Source: Gulosibacter sp.
Lineage (GTDB): Bacteria; Actinomycetota; Actinomycetes; Actinomycetales; Microbacteriaceae
Assembly: GCF_052090685.1 (NCBI RefSeq)
Contig: NZ_JBQDBE010000015.1
Coordinates: forward strand, 3,760-67,759
Direction: 5' to 3'
DNA length: 64,000 bases
Shown: positions 24,351-63,659 of the stretch, piece after piece
How the letters are laid out: the number at the start of each line of letters is the position of its first letter
Position numbering within the stretch: position 1 is the first letter of the stretch
Made by a program: the position numbers and the translations under genes
Notes under the pieces: model-generated
The model's database searches: none
What the model saw: only the letters and a program-made list of their open reading frames with translations
What the model was told of the DNA's origin: nothing

Positions 24351-25097
24351 ATGAACCCTTCGCGACCGGTGGCAGTCACCATCTTTGGCAGCTGCGTGAG
24401 TCGCGACACGCTTGAGACGATGGACCGGACCGTGTATCCGATTCTCGCGTATGTCTCACGTCAATCGCTGCTAACTGCGGGTACGGATGCATCGGCACAC
24501 CTTCCCGAGCACTATACGACTTCGAATCGATTCCAACTCCGCAATGTCCGGCGCGATATTGAGGGCCACCAGCTCGACACGATTGTGGCAGCGGGGGAAC
24601 CCGAGGTCTTGCTTTGGGACCTCGTGGATGAGCGACATGGCATTTTCGAGTTTGGTGATGGGGCGGTAATTACTCGCAGCGTGGATGTGCTCGGCGTCCC
24701 GGAGTTCTCGGAAGCAACGGAAGCGGCGCGGGTTGTGCGCTTCGGCAGTGATGAGCATTTCAACCGTTGGACGGATGCCGCGCAAATCTTCCTCTCCGAA
24801 TTGGATGCTTTAGGCTATCGCGACCGCGTGCTCGTACTCGCGGTGAATTGGGCAGCTGTCGACGTCGAGGGAATGCCGACGCCTCTGTCGATGGGGAAGA
24901 GCTCTGGGCAAGCCAATTCGATGTTTGCACGCTATTACGCGTATCTCGAAGAGCTTGGGCTGCCGGTGTTTCGTATCGATGACGCGGTCGCTGACCCCGA
25001 TCATCGTTGGGGCCCAGCCCCTTTCCACTACACTTCTGACGTATACGCGCGAATCCACGAAGCGATCGACGAGCATGTGCGACAACGCCGCGGCTAA
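24351..25097 (+). CDS. Hypothetical protein, SGNH-hydrolase-like (resembles the DUF6270 family from memory)
   Basis: The N-terminus VTIFGSCVSRDT and the C-terminus DPDHRWGPAPFHY resemble SGNH blocks I and V. The start was chosen at ATG 24351. Confidence 0.45.
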   Translation: MNPSRPVAVTIFGSCVSRDTLETMDRTVYPILAYVSRQSLLTAGTDASAHLPEHYTTSNRFQLRNVRRDIEGHQLDTIVAAGEPEVLLWDLVDERHGIFEFGDGAVITRSVDVLGVPEFSEATEAARVVRFGSDEHFNRWTDAAQIFLSELDALGYRDRVLVLAVNWAAVDVEGMPTPLSMGKSSGQANSMFARYYAYLEELGLPVFRIDDAVADPDHRWGPAPFHYTSDVYARIHEAIDEHVRQRRG

Positions 25098-25129
25098 GTG
25101 ATCGCTGCAGACCGGCCGACGACGAAGGA

Positions 25130-26662
25130 ATGATCGGGAGCATGTTCGAACGACGTGCCGAGACAAAACGGCTGCGAGCACTACAGGATCTCGAGCGTCG
25201 ACAGCATGAGCTCCTTCCTGGCTACAAGATCTGGGGCTACAAGAACATCTTTGCGAAGGGGTTTCTGATCACGCGCGGTGCAGCCGGCTACAGCCCGCGG
25301 GAAGAGTGGGATTACCTGGAATTCGGCCAGTGGCGAGTGTGCCTCGACTCGGTGCTTGAGCATCAAATTGCCCTGTCAACGACGACAGCTCAGGACGGCG
25401 AGCAAACCGGAGTCCTGATCCTCGGTCAGGTCTTTGACGATCGTGGACCTGCACGGCGCGGCGAGATTGCGTCGAGGCTGCTCAAAACGATCACGAAGGC
25501 GGGTGCTGGGCGCGAAGTCTCCCGGCGAGCAGCGGATGATGCGATTACGTGGCTGTCAGGTCGGTTTATCGTCTTCGTGATGCGGGGTGACGTCCTCGAT
25601 GTCTACGGCGACCCGATGGCGTCGAGGTCATGTTTTTGGCACGACATCGGTAGCGGCATTGCGCTAGCCTCACACACGGCGATTCTTTCGGAGCTCGCGG
25701 GCGGTCTTTCATCAGAACGGATGCGCTGGGTCCTGCGGCATCCCGACTACAAGTCGCCGGCGGGGAAGTGGTTGCCTGGTCTCATCACACCCCACGACGA
25801 TGTCGGGCAGGTCTTCGCGAACAGTCGGCTCACTATCCAGGGCCGGGACGTCAGCTACGAACGGTTCTTCCCTCGAGAAGACCGACGTGAGCTGTCTGTT
25901 GAGGAGGCTGCGGCGGTGTTTCGTCGAGAACTGCAGCAGCAGGTTCGCAATTGGATCGCCGTTGCACCGCAGACGGTGCTCGCGCTTACCGCGGGAAGTG
26001 ATTCAAAGGCGATCCTGCGCGCGGGAATCTCGGATCTTCAGGATGCGAAGGCAGTCGCATTGACGTATCACCCGTTTCACGTGTCCTCAAAGAGCACGTA
26101 TGAGGATCTCGTGACGGCCAACCGCCTGGCAGCAGCGGCTCGATTGCCCCAGATTGTGCTCGATGTCGGGCAGATGAAACCGACATCTGCCATGGCTGAT
26201 CTCTATCGCCGCACGTTCCCAACCTGGCAGCGCTATGCAAATCTCGCGAATGCACTGTATCTCGGTGCACCCGCGAAGGCGGCAACGATATTTGGCGTGG
26301 GCGGCGGGATCATCACGGGTATGTTCACCGATAAGAGTGCGCCGGAACCGACACCGGCCGTCCTTGCAAAGAAATTTGCATACTCAAAATTTGCTGAAAA
26401 TGCAGAGATTCTTCAAGAATTTGAAAAATGGCAGGTGGTGACTCAGTTTTCAACCGAAGCACTGGCCGGTCACGACTTTTACGATTTCTTTCACTGGGAA
26501 CATCGAATGAGTAAGTGGGGAGCAGCCGGATACTCCGAGTATGACCTCGCCACGACGCCCGCTCCGGTGCTGAACTCTCGTAGATTGCTCCTTACGGCGT
26601 TGGCTGTGCCGATGCGGGATCGAGAGTCAAAATCTTTATATACCGCGCTACAGCCCCTATAG
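25130..26662 (+). CDS. Asparagine-synthetase-like (PP-loop ATP-pyrophosphatase) protein lacking the N-terminal Cys nucleophile
   Basis: The central motif VLALTAGSDSKAIL resembles the SGGxDS PP-loop. The N-half pattern ILGQVFD...LSGRFIVFVMRGDVLDVYGDPMASRSCFW...ALASHTAIL resembles the AsnB glutaminase-domain fold, but the protein starts MIGSMF with no Cys2. Confidence 0.45.
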   Translation: MIGSMFERRAETKRLRALQDLERRQHELLPGYKIWGYKNIFAKGFLITRGAAGYSPREEWDYLEFGQWRVCLDSVLEHQIALSTTTAQDGEQTGVLILGQVFDDRGPARRGEIASRLLKTITKAGAGREVSRRAADDAITWLSGRFIVFVMRGDVLDVYGDPMASRSCFWHDIGSGIALASHTAILSELAGGLSSERMRWVLRHPDYKSPAGKWLPGLITPHDDVGQVFANSRLTIQGRDVSYERFFPREDRRELSVEEAAAVFRRELQQQVRNWIAVAPQTVLALTAGSDSKAILRAGISDLQDAKAVALTYHPFHVSSKSTYEDLVTANRLAAAARLPQIVLDVGQMKPTSAMADLYRRTFPTWQRYANLANALYLGAPAKAATIFGVGGGIITGMFTDKSAPEPTPAVLAKKFAYSKFAENAEILQEFEKWQVVTQFSTEALAGHDFYDFFHWEHRMSKWGAAGYSEYDLATTPAPVLNSRRLLLTALAVPMRDRESKSLYTALQPL

Positions 26663-26769: not shown

Positions 26770-28695
26770 TTGCCTGATCGTCCACCTGGCGCGCGGTGGC
26801 GCCGGGCCATTTGGCACTTTCGAGATGGGGGCCTCAAACGTGTCGTGGAATTCGAACGGCGCGAACGCGCAATTCGGAAACTCCCGAAGAGCACGGCCCT
26901 CGTTGGTCCGGTAAAACCCAAGAGCGGGGCAACTCCATCGGAGACGCTCGCGAATTCGATTCCTGACTACATTCCCGTAGAGCTGCCGCTCACTTTCCCA
27001 GACGTTCGCGCTGCGGTCATCATGGACGACTTTTCGCTCGCAGCCTGGGGTCACGAGTTCGAAACGGTGCAGGTCACCCCGAAGTGGTGGCGCCAGCAAC
27101 TCGACAAGCAACCCGTAGACCTGCTGTTCGTCGAGTCAGCATGGAACGGCAACGGTGGTGCCTGGCAGTACAAGTTGACCGGCTCGAAGGCACCCGCTCC
27201 TGAACTCCGCGCGCTCGTGGCGCACTGCAAACAACAGGGCATCACCACGGTGTTCTGGAATAAAGAGGACCCCCCACACTTCGACGACTTCCTCGACACT
27301 GCGAGGCTCTTTGATGTCGTATTCACGAGTGACGCGAACATGCTGCCGAAGTATCAGGAGGCGCTTGATCACGATCGCATAGACGTGCTCAGCTTTGCGG
27401 CTGCGCCAGCAATACACAATCCGATTCGCCTCCCACAATTTCATCAGAAACGAGACGTGGCGTTCGCGGGCATGTACTTCAGCCACAAGTTTCCCGAGCG
27501 ACGCGAGCAGATAGAGATGCTTCTCGGTGCCGCAGATCAGGTGTCTGGACGTATGGAACGCGGACTGGAGATCTACTCGAGATTCGACGGTGGTGATGAG
27601 CGGTACCAGTTCCCGAAGCCGTTGAACAAGCGTGTGCGCGGTTCCTTGCCGTACCAAAAGATGCTCACGGCGTATCGGATGCACAAAGTATTCCTCAACG
27701 TGAATTCGGTCGTGGACAGTCCGAGCATGTGTGCCCGACGTGTCTTTGAGATTGCGGCATCGGGCACCCCGGTCGTATCCGCGCCAAGCGCAGCGATTCC
27801 GCAGTTCTTCCCTCAGGATGAGGTACCAGTGGTGAGCGAGCAGCAAGAAGCTGGCTGGTTGTTGCGGGCGCTCGAGCGGTCCCCGCAAATGCGTGACCGG
27901 ATGGTACATAAAGCACAGCGACGAATTTGGAATTCACACACCTACACTCACCGTGCATCGCAGGTGTTTCGTGCAGGTAAGGTCGAGTTCGATGAGACCG
28001 CGACCGCTCCAAAACCAGTGACTGTCATGGTGTCCACAAACCGTCCCTATCAAGTCGAACATGTACTCGAGACGGTGGCATCACAAGTCGGCGTACCTGT
28101 GCAACTCGCGATGTTGACACACAACTTTGAGCTAAATGAGAAAGACTTCCGTGCTAAGGCGAACGACCTCGGGCTCGATGATGTAGTTCTGACAAGTGCC
28201 ACGAATGATGTCCTACTTGGTGAATGCTTGAACCGCCTAGTTGATCTTGCTGATGGGGAGATTGTCGCCAAGTTCGACGATGATGATTTTTATGGTGCGA
28301 ACTATCTCTTGGACGCCAGTAATGCCCTAAAATTCACGAACGCTGATCTTCTCGGAAAACAAGCTGTCTATGTTTACCTTGCTGCTCAAGACAGGATCGT
28401 TCTACGCAGCCCAGAACGTGAGCATCGATGGACCACATTTCTAGCTGGACCGACGTTCGTCGGCAATCGCGCGACATTTAAACAGTCTCGTTTCGCAAAC
28501 GTTACAAGAGGAGAAGACTCGGGCTTTCTCCTCAAAGTGATCGAACAGGGTGGACAAATATATTCATCGGATCGATTTAATTTTATCCAGAATCGAGGAA
28601 TGCAATCGCACACATGGCAAGTCAATGACCTCGAAGTTCTTGCAAATTCTAGAGTAGAATCTGCCGGTTACAATGAAGGGCACGTAACGGCATGA
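26770..28695 (+). CDS. Two-domain glycosyltransferase: CgeB/DUF3880-like N-domain + GT-A (GT2-like, DDDD motif) C-domain
   Basis: The N-domain is ...DLLFVESAWNGNGGAWQYKL...TTVFWNKEDPPHFDDFL...VFTSD. The C-domain is VTVMVSTNRP...KFDDDDFYGANYLLD. The TTG start is uncertain. Confidence 0.7.
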   Translation: MPDRPPGARWRRAIWHFRDGGLKRVVEFERRERAIRKLPKSTALVGPVKPKSGATPSETLANSIPDYIPVELPLTFPDVRAAVIMDDFSLAAWGHEFETVQVTPKWWRQQLDKQPVDLLFVESAWNGNGGAWQYKLTGSKAPAPELRALVAHCKQQGITTVFWNKEDPPHFDDFLDTARLFDVVFTSDANMLPKYQEALDHDRIDVLSFAAAPAIHNPIRLPQFHQKRDVAFAGMYFSHKFPERREQIEMLLGAADQVSGRMERGLEIYSRFDGGDERYQFPKPLNKRVRGSLPYQKMLTAYRMHKVFLNVNSVVDSPSMCARRVFEIAASGTPVVSAPSAAIPQFFPQDEVPVVSEQQEAGWLLRALERSPQMRDRMVHKAQRRIWNSHTYTHRASQVFRAGKVEFDETATAPKPVTVMVSTNRPYQVEHVLETVASQVGVPVQLAMLTHNFELNEKDFRAKANDLGLDDVVLTSATNDVLLGECLNRLVDLADGEIVAKFDDDDFYGANYLLDASNALKFTNADLLGKQAVYVYLAAQDRIVLRSPEREHRWTTFLAGPTFVGNRATFKQSRFANVTRGEDSGFLLKVIEQGGQIYSSDRFNFIQNRGMQSHTWQVNDLEVLANSRVESAGYNEGHVTA

Positions 28696-28831: not shown

Positions 28832-29317
28832 CTAACTTGCCTCATCCTCGCAGTGCCCCATTGCGACTTCAAGCAATGCCTTGATATTGGGCGCGAGCTC
28901 GCTGGGGATTTGTAAAGGGATGGTTTGCTCATCACCGTTGACGGCAATCCGAGCGCTGCGCAACGACCGTACCGCTTTCACGACCGCGCTGATCACCGAC
29001 CAGTCGCGGATTCGGCCAGGTAACGCAGCAAAAACGACGGTCAGGTGGGCTTTGAACGAGTCCAGCTCGCGATAAAAAAATGGCCGCGCCGCACGATCCG
29101 ATGTCAACAACCGACATGATCGTTCCAACCGCCAAAGGTCATGACACTCAGCGATCAATCCAGGCTTATACAGCAGACCTTGACTGAGGTTAGTCACATA
29201 ACCTGAATTATACCGAGTTAAATAGGGGACAGAAATCTTCTTTAGCAATTTCCCACCCTCCCTTTGACTTCGAACGATTGACGCTCCTGTCCGATCCTGG
29301 CAGTCGCGCCTGAACAT
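28832..29317 (-). CDS. Hypothetical protein (161 aa), low-GC, downstream of the 747-aa gene
   Basis: This is an ORF only, with no recognisable motif. It is co-directional with 29473-31716. Confidence 0.3.
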   Translation of the reverse strand: MFRRDCQDRTGASIVRSQREGGKLLKKISVPYLTRYNSGYVTNLSQGLLYKPGLIAECHDLWRLERSCRLLTSDRAARPFFYRELDSFKAHLTVVFAALPGRIRDWSVISAVVKAVRSLRSARIAVNGDEQTIPLQIPSELAPNIKALLEVAMGHCEDEAS

Positions 29318-29472
29318 CGTCTCCTCGAAAGAAAAAGCCAGTTACATCCTACGCGAAGGATAACCCCACAAGAATTGATTGTAATCAGTGAATATTTCCC
29401 AATATTGTAGGTACTCGCTCCAGCACAACGGGATAACTACCATGTAACCGCGACACACGACAGTGATATTGT

Positions 29473-31716
29473 CTAGATTTCCCCGATATGAGACGTGGCG
29501 TTCTGGAGATCGCTCAAAGCATTCCGCAGTACCGTCACCTTCGTGTCCTTTGGGCCGACTGGTAGGACAAGGGAATCAGTCGACACTCCAAGTAAATTAA
29601 CCAATTTAGGCGCCCCGTGCCCGGAAGTAGTGTACTTACGAATACCATATTCCAGCGCATTCTGATCTATCCACCATTGTGGCGAGCCAGGTTCGATCAA
29701 CGCTAGTCCGGCTTCACGAACATAGTTGGCGATGTCCATGGCTGCCTCGGAGGATTGAAATACGACGATGCCTGCGGCATACCGTTCCCATGGAGCAAGG
29801 TTTCCGCCAAGTATGCGTAACGCGATATCGCCGTCAGTGGACGCATTAATTAATTCCATGGGATCTTGTTTGATTACCGCATCGATATCGAGTAAAAGAA
29901 CTGGCGCATTTGTTCGGGCTAACAGCTCTGGGACCGCCAAAAATCTAACGAGTGATGAGACCGGACCGACATTGGCTCCTAAGTCGGTATCAATAAAAAC
30001 GAATTTAACTCGTTTCGAACTTACCCCGTAATTTGAGATGATTGGACGAGCGTCCTCTTCACTTCCCAAAACTACTATCACTAAAATAGAGTTATTCCGA
30101 GATGCGATATCGAATGAGCTGATTAAGAATTGACCAAATGCTTCCAGATATACGAGGTCGCAAGAGGCAACAAGGCTGTACTCAACCTGATTGACGTCGT
30201 CTAAGTATGCATCTATCTCGAAAGTAAACTGGTGCTTCTTATTTCTTGTCTGCTCTATTGATGCTGTAGTTGCGACAGTCGAAAAAGGGATTAGCATGTA
30301 CGTGCTAAAGGACGGCTCCAGTGAATCTCGAATATGATCAACGGAGCGCTCGTAGCCGATTAAATCTCCGGCACTGTATGCTGCAATCGCACGGAAAATG
30401 TCAACAACACACAACACCTCCGGATTCATTAGCGTGCTACGGAGATTCGACAGGTGCGTATCAATATCTTCAAATTCATCATTTGATAGGATTCCTCGGC
30501 AAACATATGAAGCCGCCTCGATAGACTCTTTTCGTGCGAGAGCGCGTTTCGCAGTCTCAAAAAGTTCAGGACTGTAGCGTAGCTCCCAAGACTTAAGCAA
30601 AGCACACGCCCGGCGAAGTGGAATGTCTTGAGTTTCATCAATGTCAGCTGCTGCATACAAGGAATCTAACGCAGCGAGATAAATTGTCCTATCAGCACGC
30701 GTGCGTGTGAACTCAACCTTGTTTGCCAGATCGAGACCCTGTTGCAGTCTCTCTCTGAATCCAACTTTATCAGAAATCTCATCATTGCCACGTGTGTTGA
30801 GGGTCGATGAATTCGGTTTACTTGATATGCGATCGAGTTCATCATTTATGATTGGCACGACGACGTCCCGAGGAAGGGGTTTGTGGCCAACAGCTTCGTA
30901 GGCGACGTCGATACTCAAGGAACCCACGCTATCCGCAACAACATTGCTCAATCGCTCACCAAGACTCAGCACATTTTCAAACTCAGAATCTGCCGAGTTC
31001 GTGAGAAGTCTCATTCTTGGTATCCGTTGTGTGCTCCTAATCCGATCCACTACAGATACCTGCTCAGGGAACCTCTTCCTATGTTGCAAAAACGAAGTGT
31101 CTAACAAATGCCGTTCAATTTCTTCAAGAGACTGAGGAAACTCATAAGTCATCATGTCAAGTTGAGGAACTTCCGCGACACAGTTACCGTGGAGGTCCAG
31201 CGCTGCTAGTTGAATTGCTTCAAAGCCACCCATCGACGAGCCATAGTAGAGCGTGGCTCCTGGTTCGGTCCCCCACGCATGTGCAATTGTTTTCACTTCA
31301 CGGCTGATGGATTTTGCCAAATCCTGACTTGAGGACATTAGCCAACCACCCAAGATTGAGTCCGATTTATACAAAGTAGGCTCGCTAAGTACAAGGATAT
31401 TCGCGCTGGGGAAACTGTCTGCCCAAGCCCAGCGGTGGAAGACCGGATTCTGCCTTGATCCTCTTGACTGCGCTGCGGGCATCAATACAAGTAGAGGCGC
31501 ACCAGCCTGACGAAATTGCAGGAGCATGTCCAGCGACATCTCGTCCCCGAGCGGAACTGTAGCCTGTCGCCACTCGTTCCTGACCGACTGCGCTGTCTCG
31601 ATGAAACTTGCTAACGACACGCTTGCCGGAAAATTAACCACCGAATCCCACCTAATCTTTTTCCACGGCCTAGTACCCTGTGAACCGGACCGTAGCCGTA
31701 CCGACTGACGATACAA
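29473..31716 (-). CDS. Three-part protein: Asp2-like alpha/beta-hydrolase N-domain, helical middle, GT-A-like (DxD) C-domain
   Basis: The N-domain is ...PLLVLMPAAQ...ILVLSEPTLY...GATLYYGSSMGGFEAIQLAA (GxSxG elbow). The C-domain is ...APVLLLDIDAVIKQD...WIDQNALEY. The gene is low-GC and its TTG start is uncertain. Confidence 0.55.
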   Translation of the reverse strand: MYRQSVRLRSGSQGTRPWKKIRWDSVVNFPASVSLASFIETAQSVRNEWRQATVPLGDEMSLDMLLQFRQAGAPLLVLMPAAQSRGSRQNPVFHRWAWADSFPSANILVLSEPTLYKSDSILGGWLMSSSQDLAKSISREVKTIAHAWGTEPGATLYYGSSMGGFEAIQLAALDLHGNCVAEVPQLDMMTYEFPQSLEEIERHLLDTSFLQHRKRFPEQVSVVDRIRSTQRIPRMRLLTNSADSEFENVLSLGERLSNVVADSVGSLSIDVAYEAVGHKPLPRDVVVPIINDELDRISSKPNSSTLNTRGNDEISDKVGFRERLQQGLDLANKVEFTRTRADRTIYLAALDSLYAAADIDETQDIPLRRACALLKSWELRYSPELFETAKRALARKESIEAASYVCRGILSNDEFEDIDTHLSNLRSTLMNPEVLCVVDIFRAIAAYSAGDLIGYERSVDHIRDSLEPSFSTYMLIPFSTVATTASIEQTRNKKHQFTFEIDAYLDDVNQVEYSLVASCDLVYLEAFGQFLISSFDIASRNNSILVIVVLGSEEDARPIISNYGVSSKRVKFVFIDTDLGANVGPVSSLVRFLAVPELLARTNAPVLLLDIDAVIKQDPMELINASTDGDIALRILGGNLAPWERYAAGIVVFQSSEAAMDIANYVREAGLALIEPGSPQWWIDQNALEYGIRKYTTSGHGAPKLVNLLGVSTDSLVLPVGPKDTKVTVLRNALSDLQNATSHIGEI

Positions 31717-31782
31717 AGTACACTGATCGGAACTTTACTTCATTAGGTTGCGAACTGCGCCGATGTCCTAAGGAGTTATGGC

Positions 31783-32235
31783 TTGACTAAACACCAGTGT
31801 TCCACTGTGCGTCACGGGTTGACAGGAGAACCACAGAGGCTAGAATCACGACCCACATCATCGGCACGAACTCTATCTCGGAAGGATTTGGGAGTCCTAC
31901 GTGAATGGATCGCCTCAGCTCAGGAACGTGAGCTTCAAGTGGAGTCTGAGGTGGAAGCACTGAGAGCACAAGCTCTCAACCTCCAGGAGACGGTCGAAGG
32001 CCTTGAGCAAGAACTTATCAGCGCTAATGACGAATGTGAGCTTCTTCGATCTAAGCTCAATAAGACTAGGGAAGCATTGGCTCAGTACTCCAAATATCGG
32101 TCCATACTAAATGGATTGCGTAAGAGTAAGACTTATAAAACAGGGGTCGCGGTGCGAGAGTCAACTTCGCTATTCAAAATACTTCTACTTCCTGCCAAAA
32201 TTATAAAAATTTCTCGAGATAAGGATGAATTGTAA
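31783..32235 (+). CDS. Coiled-coil protein (150 aa), translationally linked to the 1099-aa glycosyltransferase
   Basis: A strong SD (aaggag, 31770-31775) lies 7 nt before TTG 31783. Heptad-like sequence ELQVESEVEALRAQALNLQETVEGLEQELISANDECELLRSKLNKTREAL. The stop is 2 nt before the next ATG. Confidence 0.6.
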   Translation: MTKHQCSTVRHGLTGEPQRLESRPTSSARTLSRKDLGVLREWIASAQERELQVESEVEALRAQALNLQETVEGLEQELISANDECELLRSKLNKTREALAQYSKYRSILNGLRKSKTYKTGVAVRESTSLFKILLLPAKIIKISRDKDEL

Positions 32236-32237
32236 GG

Positions 32238-36397: not shown

Positions 36398-36465
36398 AGC
36401 GGCGGATGGCGGGCCTAAACGCCGAAAACCGAGGTGCGCCAGCCGAATAAGAATACTCAACGAAA

Positions 36466-50817: not shown

Positions 50818-50873
50818 GCGACACGCCGTGAGTTCCTCATTTACGTCTCATTTACCTTGCGTTTACTCGAGGT

Positions 50874-51611: not shown

Positions 51612-51686
51612 GGCCTCCCAATTCGCAGTGAGCGGAAGTTGGCTCGCGAGGTTCCAAGAGGCTATGGCGTAATCTGATCGCTACCA

Positions 51687-54685: not shown

Positions 54686-54774
54686 GGGTGCGTGTTAGCC
54701 TAAGCGCTTGACGGGGCTTGAGATTCGCAAGTACCCGCGAAGCTTTGTCTGAACTGAAACAAGGGGTCCTCCGC

Positions 54775-56091: not shown

Positions 56092-56702
56092 TGGTTGACG
56101 CTCCCAACTATCGAGTCGTTGACTCCGCGGATGTCGCTGAGAATGCACAGATCGGCGACGGATCGTCAGTGTGGCATCTTGCGCAAGTTCGTGAAGATGC
56201 GGTGCTGGGTAAGAATTGTGTGATTGGTCGAGGCGCGTATATCGGTACCGGTGTAACGCTTGGTGATAACTGCAAGGTGCAGAATTATGCACTGGTGTAC
56301 GAACCAGCCGTTCTTGAGTCTGGGGTCTTCATAGGTCCAGCGGTGGTGCTCACGAATGACACCTATCCGCGCGCTATCAACCCGGACGGAACGCAGAAGG
56401 CCGCATCCGACTGGGATGCGGTTGGTGTGACTATCAAAACTGGCGCGGCGATTGGCGCACGTGCCGTCTGTGTTGCTCCCGTGACGATCGGTGCTTGGTC
56501 GCTGATCGCTGCAGGATCTGTGGTCACGAAGGACGTCCCGGATCATGCGTTGATAGCCGGCGTGCCAGCGAAGCAATTGGGCTGGGTTGGGAAGACGGGC
56601 CACCGTCTCATCGAACGTGACGGGGCACTCGTTTGCCCGGACACACATGACCGTTTTAGTGAGGTAGACGGAGCCCTCGTCGCCGAAAACCAAGGAGCCT
56701 AA
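56091..56702 (+). CDS. wbpD: Left-handed beta-helix N-acetyltransferase (WbpD/WlbB-like, UDP-2-acetamido-3-amino-2,3-dideoxy-glucuronate N-acetyltransferase)
   Basis: Hexapeptide repeats IGDGSSVWHLAQVREDAVLGKNCVIGRGAYIGTGVTLGDNCKVQNYALV...; TAATG overlap with wbpA. Confidence 0.75.
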   Translation: MVDAPNYRVVDSADVAENAQIGDGSSVWHLAQVREDAVLGKNCVIGRGAYIGTGVTLGDNCKVQNYALVYEPAVLESGVFIGPAVVLTNDTYPRAINPDGTQKAASDWDAVGVTIKTGAAIGARAVCVAPVTIGAWSLIAAGSVVTKDVPDHALIAGVPAKQLGWVGKTGHRLIERDGALVCPDTHDRFSEVDGALVAENQGA

Positions 56703-56704
56703 CC

Positions 56705-57802
56705 ATGGTGGATTTTATCCCTCCAGCGAAGCCAATTATCGGTGAAGAAGAGCGCGCCGCGGTAGATCGTGTGCTGCAGACCGGAATGATCGCCCAAGGC
56801 CCCGAGGTCAAGGCATTTGAAGAAGAATTTGCTGCTGCGCTGACCGCTGGCCGCACGGCGGTGGCAGTGAACTCTGGAACGTCTGGACTCCACCTCGCGC
56901 TACTTGCCGCTGGTATTGGCGTTGGAGACGAAGTAATTGTGCCGGCGTTCACCTTTGCCGCGACGGGTAACTCGGTTGCGCTGACCGGAGCGACACCGGT
57001 GTTCGTTGACATCGAACTTGATACCTACAACCTTGATCCAGCGCGCATCGAAGCTGCGATCACGCCCAAGACAAAGGCGATCATGCCGGTGCACCTCTAT
57101 GGCCATCCGGCCAATATGCCGGCAATTCTCGCAATCGCGGAAAAGCACGGACTGCAAGTGTTCGAGGACGCCGCACAGGCACACGGAGCGACGCTCAACG
57201 GTCAGCAGGTCGGTACGTTCGGTACGTGGGGCGTGTTCAGCCTCTACCCGACGAAGAACATGACTTCGGGCGAGGGTGGCATGGTGACCGTCGAGGATGC
57301 CGAAGTAGCACGCAGGCTCCGGCTACTTCGCAACCAGGGTATGGAAGTGCAGTATCAAAATGAGCTGGTCGGATTCAATAACCGAATGACCGACATTCAC
57401 GCTGCTATCGGTCGAGTTCAGCTCACGAAAGTTGCCGACTGGACCAAGCAGCGTCAAACAAACGCGGCTGCTCTGAATGCGGGCCTTCGTGACGTCAAGA
57501 CGCCGGTGGTGGCCGAAGGCGCTGAGCACGTTTACCACCAATACACCGTGCAGCTGCCGGAGGCACTCGTTGCGCAACGCACCGAACTGCTTGCGCGTCT
57601 CAAGGATGAGTTCCAGGTTGGTACCGGTGTGTACTACCCGGTGCCGACCAATGAGCTTCCGTCGTTCAACGTCGAAGCTGACCTCCCGAACACCAAGATC
57701 GCTGCAGCTTCGGTATTCTCACTGCCTGTGCATCCCTCATTGACCTCGGGGGACCTCGAGCGCATCATTGCTGCCGTGAATACTGTCGTCGAGGAGGCCT
57801 AA
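56705..57802 (+). CDS. wbpE: DegT/DnrJ/EryC1/StrS-family PLP aminotransferase (WbpE-like)
   Basis: ...FEEEFAA...AVNSGTSGLHLAL...VIVPAFTFAATGN...FSLYPTKNMTSGEGGMV (PLP-Lys region). Confidence 0.85.
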   Translation: MVDFIPPAKPIIGEEERAAVDRVLQTGMIAQGPEVKAFEEEFAAALTAGRTAVAVNSGTSGLHLALLAAGIGVGDEVIVPAFTFAATGNSVALTGATPVFVDIELDTYNLDPARIEAAITPKTKAIMPVHLYGHPANMPAILAIAEKHGLQVFEDAAQAHGATLNGQQVGTFGTWGVFSLYPTKNMTSGEGGMVTVEDAEVARRLRLLRNQGMEVQYQNELVGFNNRMTDIHAAIGRVQLTKVADWTKQRQTNAAALNAGLRDVKTPVVAEGAEHVYHQYTVQLPEALVAQRTELLARLKDEFQVGTGVYYPVPTNELPSFNVEADLPNTKIAAASVFSLPVHPSLTSGDLERIIAAVNTVVEEA

Positions 57803-57805
57803 GCC

Positions 57806-58774
57806 ATGACGCTTCGCACTGGACTGATCGGCCTCGGGATGATGGGGCGTCATCACGCTCGCGTCATGCGGGGGATTGAAGGAACCGAGTTGGTTGCAGT
57901 CGCTGACGCGATGGGTGACGCTCACGGTGTTGCCGAAGAACTGCCGCTTTTCGAAACCGTGGATCAGCTCATCGATTTCGGCGTTGATGCAGTTGTGTGT
58001 GCAGTCCCGACCGGAATGCACGAAGAGGTTGGTTTGAAACTCGCTTCAGCTGGCGTACACACGATGGTTGAAAAGCCCATCGCGCACAGCGTCGAAGCCG
58101 GTGAGCGCCTGGCGACAGCATTTAATGAACGTGGGCTGATCGGCGCGGTTGGACACATCGAGCGCTTCAACCCGGCGCTGCAGGAACTCCGTCGACGTAT
58201 TGATGCTGGTCAGCTTGGCGAGGTCTATCAAGTAGCGACGCGTCGCCAGGGACCGTTTCCCTCACGCATCGCTGACGTAGGAGTCGTCAAAGACCTTGCG
58301 ACGCACGACATTGATCTGACGGCGTGGTTGAACCGGACCAAGTATGCGGAGATCAATGCGAAGGTAGTCCGAATCACCGGTCGCGAACACGAAGACATGG
58401 TCGTGGCCGTCGGACAGCTAGAGAACGGCGTCATCGTCAATCACACTGTGAACTGGCTGTCGGCAGTCAAGGAGCGCACAACCGTGGTCACAGGGCAGAA
58501 TGGCGTGTTCATCGCCGACACGCTCACCGCGGACCTCACGTTCTACGAGAACGGCGAAGTCCGGAGCACGTGGCAGCCGGTCGAGAACTTCCGTGGAGTT
58601 ACTGAAGGTGACGTCATCCGATACGCGTTCCCGAAGCAGGAACCACTCAAGACAGAGCATGAAGCATTCCGAGATGCGATCCTCGGTAAAGAGAACACTC
58701 ACGTCAGCATGACCGAAGGACTTGAGACACTGCGGGTGGCCGAAGGGATGCTCGAAGCCTCGAGTGTGAAATAG
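57806..58774 (+). CDS. wbpB: Gfo/Idh/MocA-family oxidoreductase (WbpB-like)
   Basis: LRTGLIGLGMMGRHHARV...VCAVPTGMHEEV...VHTMVEKPIA. Confidence 0.8.
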   Translation: MTLRTGLIGLGMMGRHHARVMRGIEGTELVAVADAMGDAHGVAEELPLFETVDQLIDFGVDAVVCAVPTGMHEEVGLKLASAGVHTMVEKPIAHSVEAGERLATAFNERGLIGAVGHIERFNPALQELRRRIDAGQLGEVYQVATRRQGPFPSRIADVGVVKDLATHDIDLTAWLNRTKYAEINAKVVRITGREHEDMVVAVGQLENGVIVNHTVNWLSAVKERTTVVTGQNGVFIADTLTADLTFYENGEVRSTWQPVENFRGVTEGDVIRYAFPKQEPLKTEHEAFRDAILGKENTHVSMTEGLETLRVAEGMLEASSVK

Positions 58775-58883
58775 AAGGTCGCTTTCAGAATTGCTCGCGT
58801 GCGTGGCCTCGAAGCTGTATTCGGGATTTGACGCGATTTTTGGATGCGCAACACATTTAGAATGAAATAGAAAGGCACGCCGA

Positions 58884-59951
58884 ATGAGGGTTGTAAGTAT
58901 CGTTGGGGCTCGGCCGCAATTCGTCAAGCTGGCGCCAATGGACCGCGCGTTTAAAAGGCTCGGTATTGAGCACAAGATTATCCATACTGGTCAACACTAC
59001 GACGCGAACATGTCGGATAGTTTCTTCAAGGATCTCGATATCTCCGCGCCAGATGTTCATCTCGGCGTTGGGTCTGGAACTCACGGCAAACAAACTGGTG
59101 CGATGCTGAGCCAGATGGATACGACATTTGAGGATCTAGAGCCTGATTGGGTCCTGGTTTACGGTGACACGAATTCGACGATTGCCGGCGCACTCTCTGC
59201 GGTCAAATTACAAATTCCACTAGCACATCTGGAAGCTGGGCTCCGTTCTTACAATCGCGCTATGCCAGAGGAACACAATCGTGTTCTCACCGACCATGCG
59301 GCCGACCTCTGCCTTGCCCCAACACAAACCGCGATGGAATGCCTTGCGGGAGAAGGGCTTGCGCAGCGTTCGCGATTGGTTGGCGACGTCATGGTCGATG
59401 TCTGTTGGCAAACGCGTGATCTAGTTAGACAAAAAAATGAACCGATTCCAGGCCTAACAGCGGACGAGACATTTGTCCTCGCAACTATTCACCGAGCGGA
59501 AAATACGGATGATCCAAAGCGGTTAGACAATATAATCAAGGCACTAGCGGGACTGAAACTCCCGGTTGTTCTACCAGCACATCCAAGACTGGTTGCAAAG
59601 ACACGTGAGTACGGTATAGAGCTTGGCGGTGGATCTCTCCGGATAGTGGATCCACTGAGTTATCCGCAAATGGTGCGCGCGATTGACGCATCGACGGGTG
59701 TTGTCACTGACTCCGGCGGCCTGCAGAAGGAAGCTTTCTTGCTACAGACGCCGTGCACTACTCTGCGCACAGAAACGGAATGGGTTGAGACTCTTGTCGA
59801 TGGCTGGAATGTCTTGGACCCGAACCTAACGCAAGTCGCTGATGTTGCAGTGCGCGAGGCGCCGACCTCGGAGCAGGATGCTCCGTATGGGAAGGGTGAT
59901 GCAGCGATTACCGCGGCACGTGCACTCATGGAGAGCTATTCAGCCAGCTAG
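58884..59951 (+). CDS. wecB: Non-hydrolysing UDP-N-acetylglucosamine(-uronate) 2-epimerase (WecB/WbpI-type)
   Basis: MRVVSIVGARPQFVKLAP...HTGQHYD...VLVYGDTNSTIAGAL...HLEAGLRSYNRAMPEEHNR...TDSGGLQKEA. Confidence 0.88.
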   Translation: MRVVSIVGARPQFVKLAPMDRAFKRLGIEHKIIHTGQHYDANMSDSFFKDLDISAPDVHLGVGSGTHGKQTGAMLSQMDTTFEDLEPDWVLVYGDTNSTIAGALSAVKLQIPLAHLEAGLRSYNRAMPEEHNRVLTDHAADLCLAPTQTAMECLAGEGLAQRSRLVGDVMVDVCWQTRDLVRQKNEPIPGLTADETFVLATIHRAENTDDPKRLDNIIKALAGLKLPVVLPAHPRLVAKTREYGIELGGGSLRIVDPLSYPQMVRAIDASTGVVTDSGGLQKEAFLLQTPCTTLRTETEWVETLVDGWNVLDPNLTQVADVAVREAPTSEQDAPYGKGDAAITAARALMESYSAS

Positions 59952-60012
59952 AAGCCGCCAATCACGCAAAAATCCGCGCGCGGTAAATTAGGTTCTGAGC
60001 AATCAATTCTGG

Positions 60013-62121
60013 TCAGGCATTCAACGCCTCGCGAATGTCTTGAATACGACGGTGCCAAGTTTGGGATTTCTGCGCAGCTTCGATGTCCTCTGAAGCAATA
60101 CTGCCTTCGATTTCAGTGAGACCCTCAATTATCGAATCGACGCTTCGTTCGCAAGCGATGCCAACTCGATTGCTAACGACAAAATTGGCAATCGCCATGT
60201 CTTCAAAACAGAGCATTGCGAACCCACGTTCGAGCATGCTTACAGTCTTATACTGGAAGCCCGCCTTTGCATAGTCGCTGTCGAGCAAATTGATTCCAAT
60301 GCACCTACTTGTTCGAGGCAAATATGTGTCCAACGCAACTGTGGAGATTCGTACGCGTGGGTCTTCATCGAGGCCGAACCTTGCTAGCGACTTGAGCAAG
60401 TGATCCACTTCACCTTGACGTGCAATGAAATCAAACCAGTATCCCTCGCTAGGAAGGCTGGAAATTGCGGTCAGATATTGGTCCATGCCGTATACGGCTC
60501 CTTGACCGCCCGCGTACAACAGAGTTGTTCCAGCGACCAAGTCACTGCCCAAAAGTGAGACGGTGTTACATACGTTTGCCGGTGCCACGGCCGGCGGTAG
60601 TGCGTGCCAGGAACGGCTTGCCTGTCCAGCATTTTCTAGCAGTTGGTTATATAGACGGCCGGTGGCCTCGACTGGAGAAAACAGGACATCACAGTGATCG
60701 CCAATCTGCTCCAGTTCGTTTGCTCCGCGCGTGCGCATATTCTGCAACTCTGTCGCGTCTGTGACGTAATCGTCTTTGTCTTCAAGCCAATAGAGATCGC
60801 GAATGAAGAATCCACTCTTACCACCTGCTTCGCGGAACTCATCTATGAATTTACTTATATCTTCTACGACGGCGTCTGAAGTTATCGGTGTCGTGGAGTT
60901 CTCCCCGTACAGGATGCCGACTTCGCCTTGCTGTGCAAGGTAGCGGCGGAGAAGAGTGAGTCGGCGATGCGCGGTGTTTGGTCCGGCAAATACACGAACA
61001 GTGGGACCAAATTCAGCAAGTGACTGCGCAAGATTTCGGATGCGCTGCGGCCTGGCTCCATTCGTTCGATCCTCAAGGGACGCTACAGAAAGAAATACGT
61101 TGAGGGGTCCGGGTTGAGAGAACGCACTCAACTCCTCATACAATTCGGGAACTTTGCGTCCCATGCATTCGTCAAGCGATTCTAAGAAACTCTCGGTACT
61201 GCGATCTGTATTTGAAATTTCGGAGTCAGGCTGTTGCTGGTGTACCGTTTGCCGAAGTTTGGTTACCAAGTTGAGCCCGCGACCAGTTTCCGCGAAATTG
61301 AGGTCATTAGTGAAATACCAAGCCCCAATTGTTTCCTCAACGACAACTCTCGACCAATCGGGACGGAGGAGTGAAAGAACCGGAGCATGATGTGCGGTCG
61401 AGCCGACGAACATCACATGCGTTGCACCTTCGAGGCGTAATTTAACGGTAGGTGCGACACTCCTATTCTGTCTAAGGTCACGGGTCGAGTACAGTGATTC
61501 GACACTGAGTTTGAAAACTTCCGCGTCTGAAATTGCGGATTGTGCAGCTTCAAGATAAGCGTCAACTCGCGCTTCATCGCTGTTGAGTGGATGAATTAAA
61601 GCAATTTTTGTTTTTGTAGCCTGCGAAAGTAAAGACTTATCATTGAATGCGTGCAACGATGGTGCTCGGAGGTGTGGCAACTGTGATCCCTTTGCCCCTG
61701 CCTTGTCCATTTCCCACTCGTCGTCTAGTAGCAATCGGTCGACAGACTTTAGGACTGCCTCGAAATCTCGAACAAGATTTGACCGACGTGTAGAGAAATC
61801 AAGCGAACCGCGTAACAGGAGTGGAATGAATGGTTGATTTAGTATATTGGCAGCGAAGCCGCTTGCTTCAAGTCCAATAGCAATTATTCGGTCAAAATTG
61901 TCGTTCGCTATTCCATGATTGAACTGGTTTGCCGCGAGAATTGAACGGCGTAATCTGTAGCCCTTCATCCATATTGGTGTGGATTTGTGGGGTCTTAGCC
62001 ACTCTCCGTTGACGTCATATACTTCAACTTCGTGATCCTCTTCTTTGAGGCGATTGAAAATCGTCCCTTCAGCTGGGCCGATATTACGTACTAGCAGCAG
62101 GATCTTCACTGGATCTCTCAT
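60013..62121 (-). CDS. Large putative glycosyltransferase with two GT-B-like halves (low GC)
   Basis: The N-half starts with a Rossmann-like KILLLVRNIGPAEG. The C-half is ...NGARPQRIRNLAQSLAEFG...LYGENSTTPI...FFIRDLYWL...LLYAGGQGAVYG...FQYKTVSMLERGF. The assignment is by pattern only. Confidence 0.5.
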   Translation of the reverse strand: MRDPVKILLLVRNIGPAEGTIFNRLKEEDHEVEVYDVNGEWLRPHKSTPIWMKGYRLRRSILAANQFNHGIANDNFDRIIAIGLEASGFAANILNQPFIPLLLRGSLDFSTRRSNLVRDFEAVLKSVDRLLLDDEWEMDKAGAKGSQLPHLRAPSLHAFNDKSLLSQATKTKIALIHPLNSDEARVDAYLEAAQSAISDAEVFKLSVESLYSTRDLRQNRSVAPTVKLRLEGATHVMFVGSTAHHAPVLSLLRPDWSRVVVEETIGAWYFTNDLNFAETGRGLNLVTKLRQTVHQQQPDSEISNTDRSTESFLESLDECMGRKVPELYEELSAFSQPGPLNVFLSVASLEDRTNGARPQRIRNLAQSLAEFGPTVRVFAGPNTAHRRLTLLRRYLAQQGEVGILYGENSTTPITSDAVVEDISKFIDEFREAGGKSGFFIRDLYWLEDKDDYVTDATELQNMRTRGANELEQIGDHCDVLFSPVEATGRLYNQLLENAGQASRSWHALPPAVAPANVCNTVSLLGSDLVAGTTLLYAGGQGAVYGMDQYLTAISSLPSEGYWFDFIARQGEVDHLLKSLARFGLDEDPRVRISTVALDTYLPRTSRCIGINLLDSDYAKAGFQYKTVSMLERGFAMLCFEDMAIANFVVSNRVGIACERSVDSIIEGLTEIEGSIASEDIEAAQKSQTWHRRIQDIREALNA

Positions 62122-63659
62122 TCTCCTGATTCGCGGGTACTTGGATCAATCCCGAGTATCTTCATTTCGCGGTCAACAGTGCGTTCTGGTGACGACTGAC
62201 TTCGTACACGATTTGCGGCTGCACGAGACATTTGTGAAAAGAGGTTCGGATTCTTCATGAGTCTCAGGATGCCGTCTGCAAGTGCTTGGGCGTCCTCTTC
62301 AGGTGCGAGTACAGCCTCGCTTTCGGAAACAAACTCAGGGATGGCGGCCACTGAATTTGTCACTGGTACAAGGCCAGAGGACATTGCTTCATCACGAGAG
62401 ACTCCTTGAGTATCAAGTCGTGAAGGGACAAGAAAGATTCCGTAATCTTTGTGGAGCTTGCTAATTTCTGACTGCGATATGAAGCCTTGCTCGATAGTTA
62501 CGTTTGGAAAAGTGCCAAGCTCTTTTGTAAAATCGGAGAAGTAGCTTCCATCGCCAACAATCTTAATCTCAATATTTTCCCATAGTGGGTTCCGTGATAG
62601 AGACTGAATCGTCTTGATAGCGATGTCGTGCCCATAGTTCAGGTTATGTGCGCTGCGTATCCATAAGATCTTGAAGCGCTGAGATGGGTCTTTTTCGAAA
62701 TAAGGAAACAGGTCAGTGTCGATTATGTTATGTACTATTTGCGTGCGTGATCTCGGGAAATGAACACGCATGTCTTGGCTCGCAGCGCGGTGAAGCCAGT
62801 CAGAAACAAATATGAACGAGGTTGGCCCAACCGGGTGGTTCACGACGTTTTGCCAATGGCGCTGCTGTGAAATAGTGCGATCAATGGACCGTTCAAGGCT
62901 CGTGCCATTGGGAATGTTCATGATTCGACGAATCCAATGGCTTGTCTCATAGCCGTGCACGAAAACGTGCAGCGAGATATTTGAAATGTGTGGTTCGATG
63001 TACTCCCACATTCGGGGGTTTAGGAAGTGGACACTTACGCTGTCATAAACTTGCTTCTTTAGGAGAGTGTCGATCTCGGGACCGTTGCCCGCGAGTACCC
63101 GTATTCCCTCGTATTCGAATATTTCTTGATCAGCCGAATATCCGGCGATAAGTACATCGACGTGCGCTCCTTGCTGCTGGTAATGCAGAACGCGGCGATG
63201 GATAAAACCGTTTGCATATTCGCTACCCGTTCTTGGGTAATTATTGGCGATTACCAAGTGGCGCGGTTTGTCGCGTACATCACCTTGGAGCGACAGAAAA
63301 TGGTCAGTGTTCGCGAGTGCAACTTCGTAGTCGTTGTTTGGGGTCTCATCTGCCGCGGACGGATCCGTCTCCGGTACGCCTACGTCCTGCTTGTCTAGGG
63401 CAGCGAAAAGCTGTTTGCGTAGTGCCTCGTTTTCCAATGCCAGCATGGCAAGTAATGATTCAGGGTCGTAGGTGTCTCCCAAGACTTCCGCCGTCACACC
63501 GAAGGTTTTGTCGTAGCCGGAAATCGGCTGCTTGGATTCACTAGTCGATGACGACTTGAGTAGCGGTCCCAGCAGCTTCTTGGAGAAGGCCTTTACGGGC
63601 TGGGGCGCGCGTCGACCTACGCTCTTGATTCTGCGTGCTATTGGCTTCGGAACTTGCAA
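62118..63659 (-). CDS. GT4-family glycosyltransferase with basic N-terminal helix and short coiled-coil (low GC); paralog of the C-domain of 32238-35537
   Basis: ...IVGDGSYFSDF...IFLVPSRLDTQGVSRDEAMSSGLVPVTNSVAAIPEFV... is nearly collinear with residues ~730-1099 of the 1099-aa protein. There is a 4-nt overlap with the downstream gene. Confidence 0.8.
   Translation of the reverse strand: MQVPKPIARRIKSVGRRAPQPVKAFSKKLLGPLLKSSSTSESKQPISGYDKTFGVTAEVLGDTYDPESLLAMLALENEALRKQLFAALDKQDVGVPETDPSAADETPNNDYEVALANTDHFLSLQGDVRDKPRHLVIANNYPRTGSEYANGFIHRRVLHYQQQGAHVDVLIAGYSADQEIFEYEGIRVLAGNGPEIDTLLKKQVYDSVSVHFLNPRMWEYIEPHISNISLHVFVHGYETSHWIRRIMNIPNGTSLERSIDRTISQQRHWQNVVNHPVGPTSFIFVSDWLHRAASQDMRVHFPRSRTQIVHNIIDTDLFPYFEKDPSQRFKILWIRSAHNLNYGHDIAIKTIQSLSRNPLWENIEIKIVGDGSYFSDFTKELGTFPNVTIEQGFISQSEISKLHKDYGIFLVPSRLDTQGVSRDEAMSSGLVPVTNSVAAIPEFVSESEAVLAPEEDAQALADGILRLMKNPNLFSQMSRAAANRVRSQSSPERTVDREMKILGIDPSTRESGE

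Follow-up and report, generated by a model that had tools for sequence, protein, structure and literature searches.

We analyzed a 64,000-nucleotide stretch of Gulosibacter sp. contig NZ_JBQDBE010000015.1 (the window; coordinates below are positions in it, with + or - for the coding strand), in which open reading frame (ORF) listing and Pfam and NCBIfam scans revealed an unbroken run of polysaccharide genes that begins at 23.2 kb and reaches the end of the window. We conclude, with a probability of roughly 0.7, that this locus is an expanded Micrococcus-type cluster for the biosynthesis of teichuronic acid, an anionic wall polysaccharide, and that it depends on an ATP-binding cassette (ABC) exporter. 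Its core inventory consists of a LytR-CpsA-Psr (LCP) ligase, a TagGH/Wzm-Wzt-type ABC-2 exporter, the dehydrogenase WecC, a five-gene diacetamido-uronic acid set, and 12 glycosyltransferase (GT) domains, and N-acetylmannosaminuronic acid (ManNAcA) and 2,3-diacetamido-2,3-dideoxymannuronic acid (ManNAc3NAcA) are probably sugars of the polymer. A first-pass annotation, made from the sequence alone, had proposed cytoplasmic assembly of one or two teichuronic-acid-like polymers, which the ABC system would export and the LCP enzyme would ligate; homology and synteny to a locus of Micrococcus luteus support this proposal, as does the lack of transmembrane (TM) segments and signal peptides in the GTs. 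The combination of two uronic-acid donors with duplicated genes for GT4 enzymes, for GTs of ~600 residues, and for pairs of a small companion protein and a protein with two GT modules (dual GT) suggests that the product is either a pair of related polymers or a single mixed one.

Ligation and export genes

Window proteins were annotated by ORF listing, codon-position GC, and Pfam and NCBIfam scans. The predicted LCP glycopolymer-peptidoglycan ligase gene at the locus border (23224-24315, -; PF03816, E=3.7e-43; TagU/LCP NCBIfam matches) encodes a protein with one N-terminal TM segment (residues 40-72) and 45% identity to the LCP protein at the head of the M. luteus locus. An LCP gene abutting the locus had been annotated before, with an end at 24234 that corresponds to an internal ATG of the real span. 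Likewise, the TagGH/Wzm-Wzt-like exporter called at 36466-38302 was confirmed as adjoining ATPase and permease genes. The TagH/Wzt-type ATPase (36466-37341, -; ABC_tran, PF00005, E=1e-19) matches TagH models with 165-181 bits and a galactan Wzt model with 157 bits, lacks a C-terminal carbohydrate-binding domain, and is 44% identical to the ATPase of the M. luteus locus. The ABC-2 permease of TagG/Wzm/KpsM type (37313-38302, -; PF01061; Wzm/KpsM NCBIfam matches) has ~7 hydrophobic segments and 37% identity to the M. luteus permease. The TagH, Wzm, and KpsM model matches of the exporter all lie under their equivalog cutoffs.

TM proteins were surveyed by a six-frame hydropathy scan of the whole 64-kb window, in which four ORFs had at least three hydrophobic segments: a SulP permease, a small 3-TM ORF at 21.8 kb, the ABC permease, and a 245-residue protein. 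No TM segment or signal peptide was present in any GT or accessory protein checked. Pfam families and the hydropathy scan gave no Wzx/Wzy flippase or polymerase in the window, and Pfam scans gave no TagF-type phosphotransferase. The first-pass annotation had recognized neither of these nor a polyprenyl-phosphate initiating transferase, and this held for the window by Pfam and hydropathy.

Conservation of the locus in Micrococcus and other genera

The teichuronic acid of M. luteus, (->4)-beta-D-ManNAcA-(1->6)-alpha-D-Glc-(1->)n, is the product of a membrane teichuronic acid synthetase (TUAS) complex (PMC3005890). The polymer starts on N-acetylglucosamine (GlcNAc), and the membrane-associated bifunctional synthetase uses UDP-glucose and UDP-ManNAcA (PMC3005890). 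By tblastn, the window shares with M. luteus a syntenic core (37-63% identity) of LCP, GT4, companion plus dual GT, WecC, ~600-residue GT, and ABC-2 exporter genes. The M. luteus locus (contig L010, 4842-22155) reads LCP gene, 390-residue GT4, 256-residue companion and 777-residue dual GT, 211-residue companion and 730-residue dual GT, and WecC, followed by a 601-residue GT, a reverse-strand 608-residue GT, the ABC ATPase and permease, a canonical epimerase, and a 604-residue protein. The window lacks the reverse-strand GT (~605-608 residues), and it has a WbpI-type epimerase where M. luteus has a canonical UDP-GlcNAc 2-epimerase and no diacetamido genes. Compared to M. luteus, the window additionally carries the diacetamido operon, a second pair of GT4 and ~600-residue GT genes, a DUF6270 protein, a 510-residue protein, a 641-residue GT, a membrane protein, and two low-GC islands.

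The loci of Gulosibacter molinativorax and Gulosibacter chungangensis are near-collinear with the window and share its GT4, WecC, ~600-residue GT, heparinase-like protein, ~590-residue GT, companion, dual GT, dehydrogenase, acetyltransferase, aminotransferase, oxidoreductase, ~525-residue GT, ~700-residue protein, and ~614-residue PP-loop (Asn_synthase-like) protein, with precursor enzymes 82-88% identical to those of the window. Relative to these loci, the window has a second GT4, a second companion/dual-GT pair, a low-GC island at 28.8-35.5 kb, and an inversion of the genes for a 702-residue protein and a 513-residue GT. The epimerase has 355 residues in the window, in contrast to 387-388 residues in Gulosibacter, where its gene lies at the far end of the locus. 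G. chungangensis combines both sugar routes with a single GT4, a single ~600-residue GT, and a single dual GT. Paenarthrobacter ureafaciens and Corynebacterium minutissimum have the same kit, including the heparinase-like gene. The comparison across related genomes that the first-pass annotation proposed thus showed a core syntenic with M. luteus and near-collinearity with two Gulosibacter genomes. Its description of the locus as the best candidate for an undescribed biosynthetic system was overstated, because the cassette is conserved in M. luteus, near-collinear in Gulosibacter, and widespread in Actinomycetota.

Nucleotide-sugar precursor enzymes

WecC, the UDP-N-acetyl-D-mannosamine (UDP-ManNAc) 6-dehydrogenase (39856-41118, +), scores 576.7 bits with NF008286 (equivalog cutoff, 459) and is 83-88% identical to its Gulosibacter counterparts and 63% identical to that of M. 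luteus. A WecB plus WecC route to UDP-ManNAcA had been annotated for the window. The WecC half of this assignment stands, but the supposed WecB (58884-59951, +) is of WbpI type, and the first enzyme of the route is missing in the window. The 355-residue epimerase passes the generic wecB model. However, its best match in the Protein Data Bank (PDB) is the Thermus thermophilus 2-epimerase for UDP-2,3-diacetamido-2,3-dideoxy-glucuronic acid (UDP-GlcNAc3NAcA; 8sxv, 325 bits, ~50% identity), compared to 245 bits for the Methanocaldococcus jannaschii UDP-GlcNAc epimerase and ~110 bits for bacterial WecB/MnaA. In enzymes of this specificity, three substitutions (Ala18, Tyr96, and Trp307) fit the substrate pocket to the bulkier UDP-GlcNAc3NAcA (PMC10622841). 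The window epimerase has Tyr96 (VYGDT) and Trp307 (TEWVE), with Leu at the Ala18 position, and the VQGDT and TERPE found in the epimerase of the M. luteus locus are of the UDP-GlcNAc type. The 8sxv match and the Tyr96 and Trp307 residues rule out a WecB identity. Judged from these residues and matches, the sole 2-epimerase of the window is a WbpI/WlbD-type enzyme predicted to act on UDP-GlcNAc3NAcA, which leaves WecC without a source of UDP-ManNAc in the window; the canonical enzyme may lie elsewhere.

The epimerase gene closes a five-gene set (54718-59951) that most likely converts UDP-GlcNAc to UDP-ManNAc3NAcA as its end product. The first gene, at the WbpA position, encodes a nucleoside diphosphate (NDP)-N-acetylhexosamine 6-dehydrogenase of the WecC/Cap5O family (54718-56091, +; three UDPG_MGDP_dh domains; TIGR03026, 305 bits, above cutoff), which is 84-85% identical to its Gulosibacter counterparts and has 4r16 and Cap5O as best PDB matches; its nearest solved relatives are UDP-ManNAc dehydrogenases. 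An ORF antisense to it (54700-56292, -; 530 residues) was rejected as a shadow ORF, because it has no domains compared to three on the plus-strand frame. Next come a WbpD/WlbB-type 3-N-acetyltransferase (56091-56702, +; Hexapep; 83-85% identity to Gulosibacter) and a DegT-family sugar aminotransferase (56705-57802, +; PF01041, E=1e-125; 85-86% identity to Gulosibacter). The acetyltransferase matches 3mqg (E=3.4e-35), titled "lipopolysaccharides biosynthesis acetyltransferase" and presumably WlbB, well ahead of other hexapeptide transferases. The WbpE role of the aminotransferase is putative: it scores 224 bits with WbpE, and several other sugar aminotransferases score higher in the PDB search.

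The fourth enzyme is a GFO/IDH/MocA nucleotide-sugar 3-dehydrogenase of GnnA/archaeal type (57806-58774, +; NF040723, 214 bits, under cutoff; 82-83% identity to Gulosibacter). Its best matches, 7bvj in the PDB and an archaeal UDP-GlcNAc 3-dehydrogenase model, rule out a WbpB/WlbA type, and no WbpB/WlbA-annotated chain occurs at E<1e-8 among its PDB matches. By these matches, the oxidoreductase is assigned to the same activity class as WbpB/WlbA and to another lineage, which implies that C6 and C3 may be oxidized in another order than in the Pseudomonas/Bordetella pathway. The WbpA/D/E/B route annotated before is represented by a five-gene set, with putative WbpA and WbpE roles and a 3-dehydrogenase that is not of WbpB type.

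Glycosyltransferases and companion/dual-GT pairs

Pfam supports 12 GT domains in nine proteins of 641, 1099, 409, 608, 420, 588, 740, 738, and 513 residues (named below by length), in agreement with the earlier count of at least ten GT domains, several of them in large multi-domain proteins. GT409 (38528-39757, +; GT4 N- and C-terminal domains; WcaI family, 107 bits) is 65% identical to its G. chungangensis counterpart and 39% identical to that of M. luteus. GT608 (41145-42971, +; GT4, stp3-like; TIGR04063, 245 bits) has a ~190-residue helical N-terminal extension and 55-62% identity to the M. luteus and Gulosibacter orthologs. The genes for GT409, WecC, and GT608 form an operon separate from the one that begins with GT420 and includes the diacetamido genes. 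GT420 (44768-46030, +; GT4) is encoded first in this closely packed, single-strand operon of ~15 kb (44768-59951), and its gene overlaps that of GT588 by 4 nt (ATGA). GT588 (46027-47793, +; GT4 with an N-terminal TPR-like extension, TPR_19; TIGR04063, 259 bits) is 70% identical to its Gulosibacter counterpart and 60% identical to that of M. luteus.

All-against-all BLASTP within the locus identified six paralog pairs: GT409 and GT420 (60% identity), GT608 and GT588 (56%), the 264- and 261-residue companions (40%), GT740 and GT738 (56%), GT641 and the N-terminal half of GT1099 (30%), and the C-terminal half of GT1099 and GT513 (38%). GT641 (26770-28695, +; Glyco_trans_1_2, PF13524, E=3e-23) is a CgeB-like GT-B protein. 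GT1099 (32238-35537, +; GC, 46%) contains two GT modules (PF13524 at 225-344; PF13692/PF00534 at 920-1061) and is encoded in a low-GC island. GT513 (62118-63659, -; PF00534, E=3e-16), of GT4 type, is 45-50% identical to the 525- and 526-residue GTs of Gulosibacter.

The two companion/dual-GT pairs lie in the long operon. The 264-residue companion (47804-48598, +; no Pfam or NCBIfam match) precedes GT740 (48595-50817, +; Glyco_trans_1_2 at 233-372, GT4 at 484-698), a candidate repeat-unit polymerase, and the 261-residue companion (51687-52472, +; 52-57% identity to the Gulosibacter companion) precedes GT738 (52469-54685, +; assigned by Pfam; 63% identity to Gulosibacter); within each pair the genes overlap by ATGA. 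In M. luteus and Gulosibacter, each dual-GT gene has a companion ortholog upstream of it, and the overlap of 4-8 nt recurs in three genera. This conserved translational coupling suggests that the companion is a stoichiometric partner of the dual GT. An AlphaFold2 (AF2) model of the companion (pLDDT, 70) shows a basic helix at the N terminus and a disordered linker, followed by a conserved alpha/beta domain of ~140 residues (pLDDT, ~90); word-based searches gave just 13 homologs.

In the AF2 model of the dual GT GT740 (pLDDT, 91; pTM, 0.87), a disordered linker connects two complete GT-B modules (1-380 and 414-740). The top Foldseek match, the Actinobacillus pleuropneumoniae serotype 3 capsule synthesis multienzyme 8qoy (E=1.7e-15), aligns weakly (TM-scores, 0.32/0.23; root-mean-square deviation, 18 A; sequence identity, 11%), and its low TM-scores and large deviation imply that it reflects multi-domain GT-B architecture only. 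The next structural matches are the retaining GT4 enzymes BshA, MshA, PimA, and TarM. The modeled architecture would fit a bifunctional polymerase of an ABC-dependent pathway. Protein searches with GT740 gave hundreds of full-length homologs in Actinomycetota, with 54-59% identity in Gulosibacter, M. luteus, Citricoccus, and Zhihengliuella and 40-47% in Arthrobacter, Corynebacterium, and Actinomadura. These close relatives came from the protein search, whereas an exact-peptide-pattern scan of contigs gave only alphaproteobacterial matches (33-34% identity). The latter are full-length homologs in Hyphomicrobiales and Rhodobacterales, located beside an ABC ATPase, a 2-epimerase, and a WecC-like gene, and they imply that the polymerase family is not confined to Gram-positive bacteria. 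Two such loci, in an Aquamicrobium metagenome-assembled genome (contig L004) and Mesorhizobium sediminum (contig L005), lie around 5-20 kb.

Accessory proteins, low-GC islands, and flanking genes

The accessory proteins of the first-pass annotation (companions, an Asp2-like hydrolase fusion, a cytoplasmic heparinase-like protein, and a coiled-coil protein) were all found. The heparinase II/III-like protein (42997-44652, -; Hepar_II_III_C, E=8e-10; Hepar_II_III_N, E=4e-6), of polysaccharide-lyase fold, has no signal peptide or TM segment, which places it in the cytoplasm, and is 52-56% identical to its Gulosibacter counterparts. The family also occurs in the Paenarthrobacter and Corynebacterium loci, and one M. 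luteus strain has an Alginate_lyase-like neighbor at the locus. This protein probably acts on the nascent polyuronide, which it would trim or epimerize at C5; more speculatively, it may be a lyase that sets chain length or a polymer-level C5-epimerase, and the paper checked holds no direct support for the C5-epimerase role.

The 747-residue fusion (29473-31716, -) joins an Asp2-like/S9 alpha/beta-hydrolase domain (~55-295) to a C-terminal domain (~325-740). It has 1019 relatives, and its halves also occur as separate proteins. Relatives of the N-terminal half match Asp2 (weakly), Peptidase_S9, and Esterase, making this domain a candidate O-acyl esterase or transferase, and the C-terminal half has a weak Nucleotid_trans match only (E=0.027). 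The 150-residue coiled-coil protein (31783-32235, +) has heptad-like residues at 35-105 and sub-threshold coiled-coil family matches only, and its gene ends 2 nt upstream of the GT1099 gene. The 702-residue protein (60013-62121, -; no Pfam or NCBIfam match) is 36-38% identical to Gulosibacter proteins of 676-716 residues with Gtf3_C or Glyco_trans_1_4 matches and is probably, by this resemblance, a divergent GT-B; local hidden Markov models (HMMs) gave no relation of its family to other GTs. The 245-residue polytopic membrane protein (50874-51611, +; ~5 TM segments by hydropathy; weak DUF6629 match) is encoded between the two companion/dual-GT pairs and has no counterpart in the compared loci. 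The DUF6270 protein (24234-25097, +, likely start at 24351; PF19786, E=7e-62, above cutoff) is absent from the loci of M. luteus and Gulosibacter. Next to it lies the 510-residue protein (25130-26662, +), which had been called AsnB-like; it does match an AsnB-type macrolactam cyclase model of NCBIfam, but with 43 bits against a cutoff of 300 and without a Pfam or PDB match. Local HMMs showed no relation of this protein to the ~610-residue PP-loop family, and that kinship was rejected. An ORF of 203 residues between the GT1099 and ABC ATPase genes (35849-36460, -) is probably not a gene, being rich in R, S, P, and G, without homolog or domain, and flat in codon-position GC.

Two segments of the locus have a GC content of 45-54% compared to ~60% in the rest, and both resemble modules for decoration or capping that the locus gained recently. 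The first (28832-35537; GC, 45-50%) contains the genes for the 747-residue fusion, the coiled-coil protein, and GT1099, and has a partial IS1634-type transposase fragment at its edge (28832-29317, -; NF033559, E=6e-5). It is missing from the M. luteus and Gulosibacter loci, which makes horizontal acquisition probable; a search for repeats on its flanks gave none. The second (58884-63659; GC, 50-54%) contains the genes for the WbpI-type epimerase (54%), the 702-residue protein, and GT513, the latter two as a pair inverted relative to Gulosibacter. The locus runs on past the window end (Logan contig L001, 6792-9685; ~64025-66918 in window coordinates). The first gene there encodes a 615-residue protein with a weak PP-loop/Asn_synthase signature (49% identity to Gulosibacter, 32% to the 604-residue M. 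luteus protein), and a GDSL-lipase-like gene comes after it.

The region from 23 kb upstream consists of housekeeping genes for an M23 peptidase, SulP, TilS, Hpt, FtsH, FolE, KatG, and FolB-FolK. GC falls to 55% at 12000-14900, which includes a 286-residue ORF (12421-13281), and a 456-residue protein with Big_9/cadherin-like Ig domains (13467-14837) is encoded amid the fol genes. A 636-residue ORF (18766-20676) has no Pfam match. In the 390-residue ORF directly 3' of ftsH (10745-11917), the GTP cyclohydrolase I domain occupies residues 250-371 only, reflecting either an over-called start or a long N-terminal extension.

Discussion

Under the teichuronic acid reading, polyprenyl-PP-GlcNAc would be made by an initiating transferase encoded elsewhere, and a linkage or adaptor oligosaccharide, which in M. 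luteus contains ManNAcA, would be built on it by the ~410-residue and ~600-residue GT4 enzymes. The ~740-residue dual GT with its companion would then act as a bifunctional polymerase that adds the two repeat sugars alternately, the ABC-2 transporter would export the finished lipid-linked chain, and the LCP enzyme would move it to peptidoglycan.

The components of this scheme also recall systems with other products. The capsule multienzyme of A. pleuropneumoniae as top structural match for the dual GT, the location of dual-GT homologs beside ABC exporters in Gram-negative Hyphomicrobiales, and the match of the KpsM model to the permease would all suit a capsule or exopolysaccharide that is lipid-anchored or released rather than bound to peptidoglycan, as in group 2-like systems. 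We regard such a product as unlikely, because an LCP ligase flanks the locus, the M. luteus LCP gene is co-oriented with and directly upstream of GT4, M. luteus teichuronic acid, a polymer with decades of work on its structure and membrane enzymology, is linked to the wall (PMC3005890), and no KpsC/S/E/D-like genes occur among the Pfam annotations of the locus. It is far more improbable that the Asp2-like fusion, the Gtf3_C-like 702-residue protein, and the multi-GT proteins serve protein O-glycosylation or glycan modification. Weak Asp2 matches in relatives of the 747-residue protein's N-terminal domain and Gtf3_C matches on Gulosibacter homologs of the 702-residue protein point in that direction; however, the matches are weak and under cutoffs, Pfam scans of the window found neither accessory SecA2/SecY2 nor a serine-rich substrate gene, and the genes in question are embedded between those for nucleotide sugars and the ABC exporter.

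Whether teichuronic acid synthesis here yields one mixed polymer or two separate wall polymers turns on the duplicated genes. GT409, WecC, GT608, and one companion/dual-GT pair could make a ManNAcA polymer, and GT420, GT588, the other pair, and the diacetamido operon a ManNAc3NAcA polymer, with exporter and ligase shared. The four assembly genes all occur as paralog pairs with 40-60% identity, the GT409-WecC-GT608 operon lies apart from GT420, GT588, the pairs, and the diacetamido operon, the copy number of the modules differs between genera, and there are two sugar routes, all of which favors two polymers. Nevertheless, both companion/dual-GT pairs are in one operon, M. luteus has two pairs with one known polymer and no diacetamido genes, and the combination of both routes with single assembly genes in G. 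chungangensis favors a mixed polymer. Two polymers are thus conceivable, but we do not consider them the likelier outcome.

Several observations weigh against the assignment to a teichuronic acid cluster. The product is predicted here from genes, and the link of the M. luteus locus to teichuronic acid is likewise drawn from gene content; the literature searched, which did not extend to the M. luteus genome paper, contained no paper testing that link or assigning genes of the pathway. The purified subunits of the M. luteus synthetase (54 and 52.5 kDa; PMC3005890) fit the size of no protein of the locus (~22, 27, 42, 45, 65, 66, 79, and 84 kDa in M. luteus). Because M. luteus has two dual GTs and one disaccharide repeat, a correspondence of one dual GT to one repeat unit is not established. 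Pfam and hydropathy detected no WecA/TagO/WbaP initiating transferase in the window, although one may be encoded elsewhere in the genome, and tblastn with the M. luteus enzyme found no second, canonical UDP-GlcNAc 2-epimerase in the window. Finally, a Foldseek search with the AF2 model of the companion gave no PDB match at E<0.01, and PDB sequence searches gave no match for the 510-, 747-, and 702-residue proteins.

Neither the class of polymer nor its two uronic-acid sugars nor the logic of export and ligation is new; the assignment of genes to enzymes is the part still undescribed. Teichuronic acids are classical but genetically neglected wall polymers of Gram-positive bacteria, and beyond Bacillus tua and Streptomyces utr their genes are essentially unassigned, those of M. 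luteus included. The conserved ABC-exporter-dependent kit (GT4, ~600-residue GT, companion plus dual GT-B, heparinase-fold protein, and PP-loop protein) names specific candidates for the synthetase of M. luteus. Of greatest interest in the locus are the companion/dual-GT pair, for its conservation, and the heparinase-fold protein of the cytoplasm, and both are better pursued in M. luteus: the window itself adds incrementally, and the M. luteus ortholog set is the experimentally tractable entry. As a tentative and rather doubtful extension, the Micrococcus-type synthetase may be encoded by the companion and two-GT-B pair, which is conserved between Micrococcus and Corynebacterium and has distant alphaproteobacterial relatives; the pair would represent a distinct class of bifunctional ABC-dependent polymerase that requires a small, fast-evolving partner, and the heparinase-fold protein may have a biosynthetic function on nascent polyuronide. 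The kit also illustrates how surface polyuronides of actinobacteria diversify, through duplicated paralogs, the addition of sugar routes, and low-GC islands. In Streptomyces, phages and toxins use polymers of this sort as receptors (PMC13274773), so that their variation likely matters for phage and toxin targeting.

Among known systems other than that of M. luteus, one with a related product is the utr cluster of Streptomyces griseus, characterized in 2025, which specifies a teichuronic-acid-like wall polymer containing ManNAc3NAcA, with a precursor route predicted to be Wbp-like (PMC13274773). The locus of the window is likewise predicted to make a Gram-positive wall polymer containing ManNAc3NAcA. 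In utr, TarS/TarM-like GTs assemble the polymer onto ribitol-phosphate wall teichoic acid (PMC13274773), and the description of the cluster, on which the comparison was based, mentions neither an ABC exporter nor a dual GT-B polymerase or a companion. The diacetamido operon resembles the Pseudomonas aeruginosa Wbp and Bordetella Wlb systems (PMC10622841) in combining five activities in one operon and in its acetyltransferase and 2-epimerase, which match Wlb/Wbp-type enzymes best. It differs from them in the GnnA/archaeal-like 3-dehydrogenase and in providing a precursor for a Gram-positive wall polymer rather than for O-antigen. The tuaABCDEFGH product of Bacillus subtilis is also an anionic uronic-acid wall polysaccharide, and the window shows weak, sub-threshold similarity to TuaC and TuaD. 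The tua pathway, however, is of Wzx/Wzy type, has its own initiating transferase, and uses glucuronic acid and N-acetylgalactosamine, and membrane components of the TuaA/B/E/F type were not detected in the window by Pfam or hydropathy; the locus bears no resemblance to the tua operon. Unlike TagGH-dependent teichoic acid synthesis, the locus has no TagF-type phosphotransferase or polyol phosphate. With that system and its LCP enzymes, and with the group 2 capsule multienzymes represented by 8qoy, it nevertheless shares an overall logic of lipid-carrier-based assembly in the cytoplasm, a multi-domain polymerase, ABC-2 export, and LCP ligation.

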